This document shows positions 23,088 through 24,951 of a stretch of DNA of 48,141 nt, one piece after another. The notes beneath the pieces were generated by a model, which saw nothing but the letters and a program-made list of their open reading frames with translations, did not search any database and was not told where the DNA came from. A program made the position numbers and the translations under genes. Within the stretch, counting starts at the first letter, position 1. Every line of letters begins with the position of its first letter. The stretch is from the IMG/VR virus record IMGVR_UViG_2675903658_000004; one strand, given 5' to 3'. The DNA comes from a virus. Its lineage: Duplodnaviria; Heunggongvirae; Uroviricota; Caudoviricetes.

Positions 23088-23381
23088 TTATTGTGAGCAA
23101 TACACACGCGCTTCCAGCGGAGTATAAATGCCTAAAGTAATAAAACCGAGCAATCCATTTACGAATGTTTGCTGGGTTTCTGTTTTAACAACATTTTCTG
23201 CACCACCACAAATTTTTGCTGCATCGACAGTTTTCTTCTGCCCAATTCCCGAAACGAAGAAATGATGGGTGATGGTTTCCTTTGGTGTTACTGCTGTAGG
23301 TTTGTTTCCAACAGTAAACGTCTGTTGAGCACATCCTGTAATAAGCATTGCCAGAGCGGCAGAAAACAACATTTTTTTCAT
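23088..23381 (-). CDS. bor: Bor serum-resistance lipoprotein
   Basis: MKKMLFSAALAMLITGCAQQTFTV... matches lambda Bor; ATG at 23381. Confidence 0.9.
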   Translation of the reverse strand: MKKMLFSAALAMLITGCAQQTFTVGNKPTAVTPKETITHHFFVSGIGQKKTVDAAKICGGAENVVKTETQQTFVNGLLGFITLGIYTPLEARVYCSQ

Positions 23382-23861
23382 CTTATTATCCTGCATTGTT
23401 AAAAACGGCAGAATCCTATGTGACAACAATTAAACGATAGTTAAATGGATTGATGAAAATTAAAACTACACAGGTGGGCTCAGACTATTGGAGGAAGTTG
23501 GGGACACTCAGAATCCTGTGGAATGAAATAAACCGGTCTATCCGTCCATTACCCTTTTAGCTGCGCTGTATCGTCGCCGTATTCCCGCATTAACCATGAC
23601 CGTAGCCCGACGGGGAATTCCTTCTGCGTGAGTGTGCGGGAATAATTAAAAACGATGCACACCGGGTTTTTACCGCGTTAATGATTCGCGGGTTTATCCC
23701 GGTGCGATGGTGGAAGAAACAGGAAGCTGTATTACAGAAAGTGCTACTACTGTATCCCGATGCGATGTATGTAATGTGAGTCAGATAATGGCACAGGATG
23801 TGGTGATGTGGCAGTCTGGAACACAGGATATATTGTCAGAATAAGACCCGTAGGAATAAAA

Positions 23862-24188
23862 ATGAAAAGACGCCTTTTACTACTTTTTCTGTTATCTGTC
23901 CTGGCAGTGGGATGCTCGCAGCAAAAAGCTGATGAGCCCCGGCAATTAGTGACGGTGTATCCACGATATCCGGAATATGCTGCAGCAAATTATATCAAGG
24001 GGCTGGTTGAGGTTAAGTTCGATATTGGTGCTGATGGGACTGTGACACGGATCGTTTTTCTCCGCTCAGAGCCTCATAATTTGTTTCGTGATGAAGTGGT
24101 GAAGGCCATGGCGAAATGGCGATTTGAAAAGAATCGCCCCTGTCAGGGAGTGAAGAGACAATTTATCTTTACGCCGTCACGTCCTTGA
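23862..24188 (+). CDS. lipoprotein with TonB C-terminal-like domain
   Basis: Lipobox LLSVLAVGCSQ followed by a YPxxA...G-type motif (VYPRYPEYAAANYIKGLVEVKFDIGADGTV) resembling TonB/TolA C-terminal domains. Confidence 0.55.
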   Translation: MKRRLLLLFLLSVLAVGCSQQKADEPRQLVTVYPRYPEYAAANYIKGLVEVKFDIGADGTVTRIVFLRSEPHNLFRDEVVKAMAKWRFEKNRPCQGVKRQFIFTPSRP

Positions 24189-24310
24189 TGCTTCCAGGTA
24201 GAGAGGGGCTGGAAGCAGGAGAAAAATGAAAGAGCCAGCGGTTATATTTTTGTCATGGCTGACGAGGAATGATGGAAGAAGGCGTTGTATGCCACACAAC
24301 GCCTCACTGT

Positions 24311-24490
24311 TCATTTCTTCTTTTTCTCTGGTGGAACCCGATGAATAAGAGTTGCACTGGTTTCCGATGAGATGGCGATATACTCGGGCAAAGTATGCTG
24401 GCAGTTTTCCAACTGGTCAAAAATACCTGCTCTCGTCTGTTGCAATGCCTGCAGCATGCGGCGGCAATGCGCCTTGCTTTTACTAACCAT
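24311..24490 (-). CDS. hypothetical small protein (start uncertain)
   Basis: ORF 24311..24664 trimmed to an internal ATG to avoid overlap with the neighbouring ORF. Confidence 0.3.
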   Translation of the reverse strand: MVSKSKAHCRRMLQALQQTRAGIFDQLENCQHTLPEYIAISSETSATLIHRVPPEKKKK

Positions 24491-24551
24491 CTTTCCTTCC
24501 TCTATCAGTCGCTGCGTGAACTCATCATGGAATACCAGGTAAATGCGGATG

Positions 24552-24803
24552 TTATCGGTTTTGGCTACGCAGCATAGTACAAAACGGACAGGTGCATCCC
24601 GGGACGGGGGAGGCGTCACATGTCCCTGTGATGGTTGTTCCGGGTAATGTACTGTGTGGGGCATAAAAATGTCCGATAATTTTACTTTCTACCGCAGTTA
24701 GTTGATTCGTTGGTCCTGGTAGCACATTGGGCGAGGATTTAAATGCCAGGCAACTGAAGGATGATGTCGCAAGGGAGATAGCGAGAATATTTCTGATTTT
24801 CAT
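24552..24803 (-). CDS. hypothetical secreted small protein
   Basis: Internal start MKIRNILAISLATSSFSCLA resembles a signal peptide; Cys-rich C-terminus. Confidence 0.35.
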   Translation of the reverse strand: MKIRNILAISLATSSFSCLAFKSSPNVLPGPTNQLTAVESKIIGHFYAPHSTLPGTTITGTCDASPVPGCTCPFCTMLRSQNR

Positions 24804-24951
24804 TTGATGATGCCTCTGTGTGAAATGACGGTAAACGACGCACTTGTGCCGGCACATAATAGCAAGCACCATAATAGATCAGATTCGATTCTTGCTGTAA
24901 GTGATAATTATTCTCGTTTTCGGGTCCTTTCCGTCGATCCAACAGGTTACG

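Follow-up and report, generated by a model that had tools for sequence, protein, structure and literature searches.

What is encoded between the lysis cassette and the cohesive end of a lambdoid prophage, and in particular what could be the function of a small lipoprotein found there that resembles TonB's C-terminal domain? The question is raised by a 48,141-nt stretch of DNA from a tailed virus (Duplodnaviria; Heunggongvirae; Uroviricota; Caudoviricetes; IMG/VR record IMGVR_UViG_2675903658_000004), whose whole length is referred to here as the window. An interval of 1.9 kb, with genes on mixed strands, separates the stop codon of the lysis gene Rz (23056) from cos (24952), and the original prediction, made from the letters of the DNA alone, described it as a cluster of envelope-associated cargo genes. 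All of the elements listed in that prediction were found in place, its left limit (23088) being the stop codon of bor, and the genes do lie on mixed strands and are part of neither module, lysis or packaging. We regard the cluster as very probably a set of real accessory envelope genes. One of them (23862–24188, plus strand, 108 amino acids), whose product is referred to here as the TonB-C protein, specifies the C-terminal domain in full but no other part of TonB, as judged by profile, sequence and predicted fold. Tentatively, we propose that this protein may act as a decoy for the Ton boxes of TonB-dependent transporters.

A TonB C-terminal domain on a predicted lipoprotein

The TonB-C protein starts with MKRRLLLLFLLSVLAVG followed by Cys18, a signal peptide and lipobox (LFLLSVLAVG, then C18) that match the PROSITE lipoprotein pattern. 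A seven-residue tether (SQQKADE) leads from Cys18 to the TonB C-terminal domain, which occupies residues 26–103. The residue at position +2 after Cys18 is Ser; under the +2 rule of lipoprotein sorting this residue directs the protein to the outer membrane, which is the predicted location of the TonB-C protein. A lipobox-type Cys is present in 28 of the 29 members of the family, and none of the 29 has Asp at position +2.

The domain scored well above the family cut-offs, both with Pfam TonB_C (PF03544; E = 7.3e-13, 49.2 bits vs a cut-off of 24.6) and with NCBIfam tonB_Cterm (TIGR01352; 47.4 bits vs 27.1). Residues 24–103 align without gaps to residues 151–230 of Escherichia coli TonB, with 32 of 80 positions (40%) identical, and the best solved relative is 1u07 (E = 1.4e-14). 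The TonB aromatic residues Y163, F180, F202, W213 and F230 are all retained, and Y215 is replaced by Phe. An AlphaFold model based on 29 sequences has a mean predicted local distance difference test score (pLDDT) of 87, with 79 residues at 90 or above, and its elements (strand 28–30, helix 38–42, strands 47–55 and 61–70, helix 76–83, strand 94–103) follow the order of the TonB C-terminal domain. Foldseek placed the model on 1u07, 2gsk_B and 2grx_C at root-mean-square deviations of 0.9–1.4 Å and target-normalised TM-scores of 0.91–0.92, the deviation being 1.0 Å from TonB in its complex with BtuB (2gsk_B) and 0.9 Å from TonB in its complex with FhuA (2grx_C). All PDB matches at E ≤ 0.001 were C-terminal domains of TonB or its homologues. 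The original prediction had assigned a TonB-C-like lipoprotein to exactly these coordinates; since the assignment holds on all of these lines of evidence, the interaction with TonB-dependent transporters that it suggested stays plausible.

None of the other parts of TonB was detected. The NCBIfam TonB equivalog models NF008080–NF008084 gave at most 69.2 bits against cut-offs of 265–448 (315 for the best match), and only their C-terminal third was matched. Where TonB has an N-terminal inner-membrane anchor and a proline-rich spacer, residues 1–18 of the TonB-C protein form a signal peptide with predicted cleavage at Cys18. Its neighbours out to 2 kb on each side are Rz/Rz1, bor, the gene for an 83-residue protein described below, and Nu1. 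Lacking a transmembrane helix, a proline spacer and any link to ExbBD, the protein should be unable to transduce energy, and coupling to ExbB/ExbD is implausible from its anatomy. Its sequence and domain have been annotated before, and the protein represents an uncharacterised architectural variant of TonB.

Selection on the gene and its distribution

The gene has its own start context, as predicted originally: a Shine-Dalgarno sequence AGGA (23852–23855, plus strand) lies 6 nt before the ATG and is also annotated as a ribosome-binding site in the phage 21 record. Full-length relatives at 67–85% identity came out of a search of 5.8 billion proteins, and all full-length members are exactly 108 amino acids long. 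Between the allele in the window and these relatives the ratio of nonsynonymous to synonymous substitutions (dN/dS) is 0.10–0.19, with dS reaching 1.5–2.2, near saturation, for the most distant alleles. Two alleles, at ~70% identity, differ most in the N-terminal tether and the C-terminal strand. By these sequence comparisons the gene is real and under strong purifying selection, not a chance open reading frame (ORF).

Wherever it occurs in phages, the gene sits at the junction of lysis and packaging genes on the late strand. It is present in 19 of 120 IMG/VR loci that were collected for a conserved post-lysis element (see below), and thus shows the variable presence expected of a moron, an accessory transcription unit, with a promoter and terminator of its own, that lies at a module boundary in some phages and is missing from close relatives. 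The ~70% allele is found in other lambdoid prophages that lack bor, between Rz/Rz1 and a DUF3950 gene, an HNH gene and an HK97-type terminase; a relative at 44% identity has a DUF2514 spanin-type gene on one side and HNH, terminase and portal genes on the other. The same slot and strand are kept across phages with three different packaging modules, whether bor is present or absent. In a curated phage collection the gene appears in 15 records, which comprise the phage 21 group, Shiga toxin 1a (Stx1a) phages along with JLK-2012, and one Klebsiella phage. Small TonB_C lipoproteins of the same architecture, at 31–42% identity, are also encoded on the chromosomes of Pantoea, Rahnella, Erwinia and others, in non-phage contexts. 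These lone-TonB_C lipoproteins of 104–133 amino acids (loci L015, L019, L020 and related ones) constitute a chromosomal family for which the literature search found no functional study. The phage gene is thus a captured member of this uncharacterised cellular family.

A possible decoy for Ton boxes

We put forward, as a possible rather than a probable function, that the TonB-C protein is a natural Ton-box decoy that would lower the entry of TonB-dependent phages, colicins and microcins. The seven-residue tether would fix the domain to the outer membrane, on its inner leaflet. There the exposed edge of strand β3 would, as in TonB itself, pair with Ton boxes: those of TonB-dependent transporters and possibly also those of incoming group-B colicins. 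Ton boxes occupied in this way would keep the real TonB off. The expected effects would be less irreversible adsorption of TonB-dependent phages such as T1 and phi80 and less uptake of group-B colicins, microcins and albomycin, at the cost of some loss of siderophore and vitamin B12 uptake. TonB binds the Ton box of a transporter by β-strand augmentation on strand β3, and this strand is present and confidently modelled in the TonB-C protein. A Ton-box pentapeptide lowers colicin killing and phi80 infection, according to a passage of PMC9841981 that cites Howard et al. 2001 and Tuckman and Osburne 1992, and FhuA is blocked from the periplasmic side by Llp and Cor, which are outer-membrane lipoproteins of phages (bioRxiv 10.64898/2026.03.26.714494).

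The phage itself would not be the target of such a block. The tip of its J protein is identical to that of phage 21 J and shows 57% identity with lambda J and 55% with 434 J. The receptors of lambda and 434 are porins, so with a tip of this type a block at TonB would exclude other phages, not this one. As the gene shares the orientation of the late operon and lies directly 3' of the element that ends the lysis module, it should be read at least by late transcription.

Several observations weigh against the decoy proposal. Residues implicated in the contacts of TonB with the Ton box and the plug are changed in the TonB-C protein (Q160 to Tyr or Leu, R166 to Tyr, R158 to Thr). A scan for sigma-70 consensus sites revealed no convincing plus-strand promoter upstream of the gene (23400–23861), and no intrinsic terminator with a T-run follows 24188; the promoter sites counted in the scan were close in number to those expected from shuffled sequence (4 found vs 4.1 expected). 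The original prediction, in which the cluster is typical of lysogenic-conversion cargo, is partly borne out: the variable presence of the genes in the 120 loci speaks for accessory cargo, whereas lysogenic conversion would need expression in the lysogen. PADLOC matched none of the five proteins to a defence family, and a full-text literature search found no study of the TonB-C protein or of small TonB_C lipoproteins; mentions of CP-933N in two papers on enterohaemorrhagic E. coli concern other genes. The chromosomal relatives in non-phage contexts point to a cellular role that need not be exclusion. E. coli Nissle 1917, one of the strains that carry the region, relies on several siderophore systems. 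A constitutive, general block of TonB would starve the host of iron, and yet the gene is common, which would call for low or conditional expression, selectivity among transporters or a different function. We consider doubtful a more far-reaching version of the proposal, in which the TonB-C protein would be a new class of exclusion factor, an outer-membrane mimic of TonB that gives lysogens a broad tolerance of TonB-dependent phages, group-B colicins and microcins and whose synthesis is governed by the upstream structured RNA at 23562–23724, itself a previously undescribed element of the late transcript in lambda-like phages.

Three other explanations of the protein have to be weighed against the decoy. 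It might be a receptor-specific exclusion factor of the Cor or Llp kind that docks on one transporter, for example FhuA, and inactivates it allosterically. Its predicted topology, that of a small phage lipoprotein in the inner leaflet of the outer membrane, is the same as theirs; the fold was kept with the TonB contact residues Q160, R166 and R158 replaced, and the differences between alleles at the tether and the C-terminal strand could reflect different specificities. However, the protein folds as a TonB C-terminal domain and no Llp or Cor structure is among the Foldseek matches listed, Pfam and PHROG gave no match to a Cor-like family, and binding of Ton boxes by β-augmentation is largely independent of sequence. 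Moreover, cor usually accompanies phages that use FhuA, and the J tip of this phage is not of the FhuA type. Such a factor seems rather improbable to us. The idea that the gene is a decaying, functionless fragment of a captured tonB, which is reflected in older annotations ('partial tonB-like', 'TonB fragment') and in the coverage of only the last third of TonB, is effectively refuted by the data on selection and architecture and can be given very little credence: dN/dS is 0.10–0.19 across alleles whose synonymous divergence is saturated, the full-length members, all of 108 amino acids, have gained a signal peptide and share a lipobox Cys that does not vary, a wider family of the same architecture exists in other genera, and the fold is modelled with high confidence.

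The remaining explanation makes the TonB-C protein a late lysis or envelope factor, an outer-membrane tether or peptidoglycan binder that affects envelope integrity or the timing of lysis, expressed from the late operon only and not as cargo of the lysogen. The position of the gene, always just 3' of the lysis cassette, on the late strand and behind the conserved post-lysis element, agrees with this, as does the failure of the sigma-70 consensus scan to find a promoter of its own, and its PHROG family, phrog_1267, is labelled 'Rz-like spanin'. That label looks propagated, however, because it is also attached, in AU6Stx1, to a spurious ORF that covers the non-coding element. An outer-membrane spanin (o-spanin) is a small, proline-rich, non-globular lipoprotein whose gene is nested in or abuts that of the inner-membrane spanin (i-spanin), and a unimolecular spanin (u-spanin) is a lipoprotein with a C-terminal transmembrane helix. 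The TonB-C protein is globular and not proline-rich, its C-terminus (...FIFTPSRP) has no hydrophobic helix, and its gene, neither nested in nor abutting an i-spanin gene, starts 806 nt past the Rz stop, beyond bor; we therefore rejected a spanin identity. The phage also has intact Rz and Rz1, the TonB-C gene is missing from 101 of the 120 loci, that is, from most lambdoid phages with the same lysis genes, and the chromosomal TonB_C relatives have no lysis context. A late factor of this kind is accordingly quite unlikely, and the decoy, with the reservations given above, is the reading that we retain.

A conserved, probably structured element ahead of the TonB-C gene

Between bor and the TonB-C gene lies a conserved non-coding element of 163 nt, here called EL (23562–23724, plus strand), which the original prediction had missed. 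Homology between the window and diverged TonB-C loci begins 300 nt before the ATG of the TonB-C gene, and EL is ~90% conserved in this comparison, vs 68–78% for the adjacent coding sequence. The copy in the window lacks ~17 nt that are present in most copies. EL occurs in 432 phage records, lambda-like and Stx phages included, and in thousands of E. coli genomes, with no meaningful annotation. Across the 120 IMG/VR loci it has sharp ends and unrelated flanks, with variable cargo on either side, and it is co-oriented with the upstream Rz and the downstream terminase genes wherever those were detected. In two Stx phages EL starts 10 nt past the Rz stop, and the TonB-C gene, where present, always directly follows EL.

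RNAalifold found five helices in EL, with 98% of cells paired and four pairs changed on both sides, and the covariation score was reached by none of 500 shuffles. Many U-G pairs fit only the plus strand. A covariance model detected exactly one copy in the window and a full-length copy in Salmonella phage S135, which carries compensatory changes in helix 2 (TATTCCC/GGGAATA to TATCATC/.ATGATA) and helix 5 (CCGGT/ACCGG to TCGAT/ATCGA). EL is thus probably a structured RNA that closes the lysis module in the late transcript. Rfam 15 gave no match at E ≤ 1 in 20000–25600 and none at E ≤ 10 in 23530–23870.

The known elements considered did not account for EL. A lambda-type bor promoter, predicted in the HK629 copy, cannot explain its conservation, as the hexamers are not conserved in the copy in the window. 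The anti-small RNAs AgvB and AsxR are encoded 3' of PR', before the lysis genes, and are 51–60 nt long, so they are not this element, and the small RNA Pas, the subject of a preprint, is unrelated to it. In some RefSeq records EL is covered by a spurious ORF labelled 'Rz-like spanin'.

Bor and an overlooked cysteine-rich protein

The bor/iss gene (23088–23381, minus strand, 97 amino acids) ends 32 nt past the Rz stop, on the opposite strand to Rz. Its product starts with MKKMLFSAALAMLITG followed by Cys, a lipoprotein signal peptide with the lipobox LITG-C, and matches Pfam Lambda_Bor (PF06291; E = 1.1e-30) over profile positions 1–75 of 75, at 106 bits against a cut-off of 25. It is annotated as a homologue of lambda Bor in the phage 21 record and as Iss by the annotation pipeline PGAP in Nissle 1917. 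By sequence, then, the protein that the original prediction had named Bor is the known Bor/Iss outer-membrane serum-resistance lipoprotein, called Bor in lambda and Iss on ColV plasmids.

The small ORFs that the original prediction included in the cluster fared unevenly. The one for which it had noted a signal-peptide-like N-terminus proved to be a real gene (24552–24803, minus strand, 83 amino acids; the right limit given originally, 24872, is an upstream in-frame ATG), and the others are unsupported. This gene was called neither in the phage 21 record nor by PGAP. The N-terminus of its product, MKIRNILAISLATSSFS followed by Cys18, fits the PROSITE PS51257 lipoprotein pattern, a fit that had also escaped the original prediction. 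The lipobox SSF(S/G)-C fits all 18 aligned homologues, with F16 and C18 invariant and only Ser or Gly at position −1, so the protein is probably lipidated; cleavage by signal peptidase I after Ala20 is possible. The aligned homologues share the C-terminal motif GTCDASPVPGCxCPFCTMLRS.

Coding is supported by a gapless counterpart in locus L008, at 64% identity and a dN/dS of 0.083, with 19, 17 and 48 differences at codon positions 1, 2 and 3. When the other five frames were compared in the same way, the ratio exceeded 1 in four and stop codons appeared in all five. Homologues at 55–77% identity are encoded in Escherichia, Citrobacter, Klebsiella and Salmonella, and nearly all are 82–84 amino acids long, two having been called with longer N-termini. 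DNA homology to the Salmonella and Klebsiella loci is limited to 24550–24811, i.e. to the ORF itself. On this comparative evidence the ORF is a real, overlooked gene for a cysteine-rich lipoprotein or secreted protein. The protein had no match in the family libraries Pfam, PHROG and NCBIfam, and AlphaFold gave no reliable model of it (pLDDT 49).

In Salmonella enterica subsp. salamae (L144, 3504–6166) the homologue of the 83-residue protein is encoded directly upstream of a bor homologue on the same strand; these two phage cargo genes apparently reached a Salmonella virulence island as a pair. The same island holds genes for a SPATE autotransporter, a PPC-domain protein, an omptin and an NEL-type effector. 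In Klebsiella the gene for the 83-residue protein is found alone, on a 211-kb replicon.

Other small ORFs

An optional block of 362 nt (24190–24551), absent from L008 and found elsewhere only at 99% identity or more, contains rival small ORFs: one of 40 codons (24226–24348, plus strand), one of 59 (24311–24490, minus strand) and one of 60 that was called by PGAP (24395–24577, plus strand). The 60-codon ORF overlaps the rival minus-strand ORF and has a nonsense change at codon E46 in three related loci, so the RefSeq call, the only PGAP 'hypothetical protein' of the region, may be wrong. PHROG matches of the ORFs in the block are to families of predicted ORFs only. A 117-codon ORF annotated in PhiR63_2 (24311–24664, minus strand) was rejected because its N-terminal half overlaps the gene for the 83-residue protein in another frame and because homologous loci have changes that give stop codons in its frame or remove its start codon. 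Only its 59-residue C-terminal part stays a candidate, and this part is unrelated to the DUF3950 protein encoded at the equivalent position.

Three further ORFs were discarded. That at 23707–23844 (plus strand), annotated in phage 21, is broken by indels in three homologous loci and has no PHROG or Pfam match; that at 23549–23662 (minus strand) lies over EL and runs past its sharp boundary; and that at 24804–25058 (plus strand) is not credible, as it runs across cos. No comparable sign of purifying selection backs the other small ORFs in 23430–23860 and 24190–24551, which are not acceptable as genes on present evidence.

Genomic setting and spread

The interval between Rz and cos is an accessory-gene slot of a phage-21-type lambdoid prophage. 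Upstream of it lie the genes for the S21 pinholin (21886–22101), a signal-anchor-release endolysin (22101–22598) and Rz (22595–23056), with an intact Rz1 (22815–22997; Pfam Rz1, E = 2.9e-20) nested in Rz. The boundary of the cluster on the other side is the cos region (24922–24963, plus strand), which contains cosQ (24922–24928, plus strand), as annotated in the phage 21 record, and a 12-nt cohesive end read from the sequence as GGGCGGCGACCT (24952–24963, plus strand); Nu1 follows at 25140–25688. The end of the phage 21 record corresponds to position 24951 of the window.

Bor, the TonB-C gene, DUF1398, DUF3950 and the gene for the 83-residue protein vary independently among the 120 loci. Variable presence among related lambdoid phages is a hallmark of accessory cargo, and the slot probably carries three independently mobile genes for probable outer-membrane lipoproteins, namely Bor, the TonB-C protein and the 83-residue protein. 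A porin gene of the OmpC/NmpC type (20215–21357, minus strand), on the opposite strand shortly upstream of the lysis cassette, is a further item of envelope cargo in the late region.

Positions 23000–25140 are 100% identical to phages PhiR57_1 and PhiR63_2. The classic lambdoid phage 21 (OL657228.1), with a record that stops at the cohesive end, is 100% identical at its right end to positions 23000–24951. At least 80% of 23430–24950 was found in 1222 of 5426 complete E. coli genomes (~22%), including that of Nissle 1917, in which the PGAP calls are 'Iss', 'TonB family protein' and a single hypothetical protein. A scan of species-representative genomes gave only a contaminant contig, and the taxonomic spread was taken from protein searches.

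Two features of the window lie outside the cluster. An in-frame TGA (26560–26562) splits the ORF of the terminase large subunit into 25618–26562 and 26578–27588; PhiR63_2 and the Nissle 1917 prophage have TGG (Trp) at this place, so the TGA reflects either a defective prophage or a sequencing error. An insertion sequence of 1310 bp, with a pair of ORFs of 108 and 296 codons in each copy and the appearance of the IS3 family, is present in three 100%-identical copies (5268–6577, plus strand; 14686–15995, minus strand; 46187–47496, plus strand) within these 48 kb.

Implications and comparison with known systems

If the TonB-C protein does act as a decoy, phage 21 and the prophages in ~22% of complete E. 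coli genomes would carry an unrecognised block of the TonB gateway, which serves many phages, colicins, microcins and siderophore-antibiotic conjugates. This would bear on host range in phage therapy, on the ecology of colicins and microcins in the gut, Nissle 1917 included, and on susceptibility to 'Trojan horse' antibiotics, and the protein would offer a ready natural probe for the coupling between TonB and its transporters. Independently of the decoy, the analysis adds a missed, conserved gene for a small lipoprotein that travels with bor into a Salmonella virulence island, and a conserved, probably structured element at the end of the lysis module of lambdoid phages, lambda-like ones included.

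The slot as a whole has a counterpart in lambda, which has bor at the same place and on the same strand between Rz and cos, together with variable accessory genes. The lambda slot is occupied by bor, a DUF1398 gene and a small ORF, whereas here DUF1398 is replaced by the TonB-C lipoprotein gene, on the other strand, and by the gene for the 83-residue protein.

For the TonB-C protein itself the closest known structure is the C-terminal domain of E. coli TonB (residues 150–239; PDB 1U07, 1XX3, 2GSK and 2GRX), with which it shares the order of strands and helices and the core aromatic residues. Whereas TonB is anchored in the inner membrane, this protein is predicted to be held at the outer one by a lipid and a tether of seven residues. 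The periplasmic TonB fragments constructed in the laboratory, as described in a passage of PMC9841981, are likewise TonB C-terminal domains uncoupled from energy, and they inhibit TonB-dependent iron import. These fragments and the Ton-box peptides are artificial, soluble and overexpressed, whereas the TonB-C protein is natural, phage-borne, predicted to be lipid-anchored and under purifying selection. Among phage proteins, Llp of T5 and Cor of phi80, N15, HK022 and mEp167 are small lipoproteins of the inner leaflet of the outer membrane that act on FhuA, and the TonB-C protein has the same predicted topology. No Cor or Llp family is among its Pfam or PHROG matches, and neither these nor the Foldseek matches listed show a relationship to them in sequence or fold. 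Llp and Cor are specific for FhuA, with Llp acting allosterically on the FhuA loops, whereas the TonB-C protein has the fold of the natural partner of the transporters and could address all Ton boxes.

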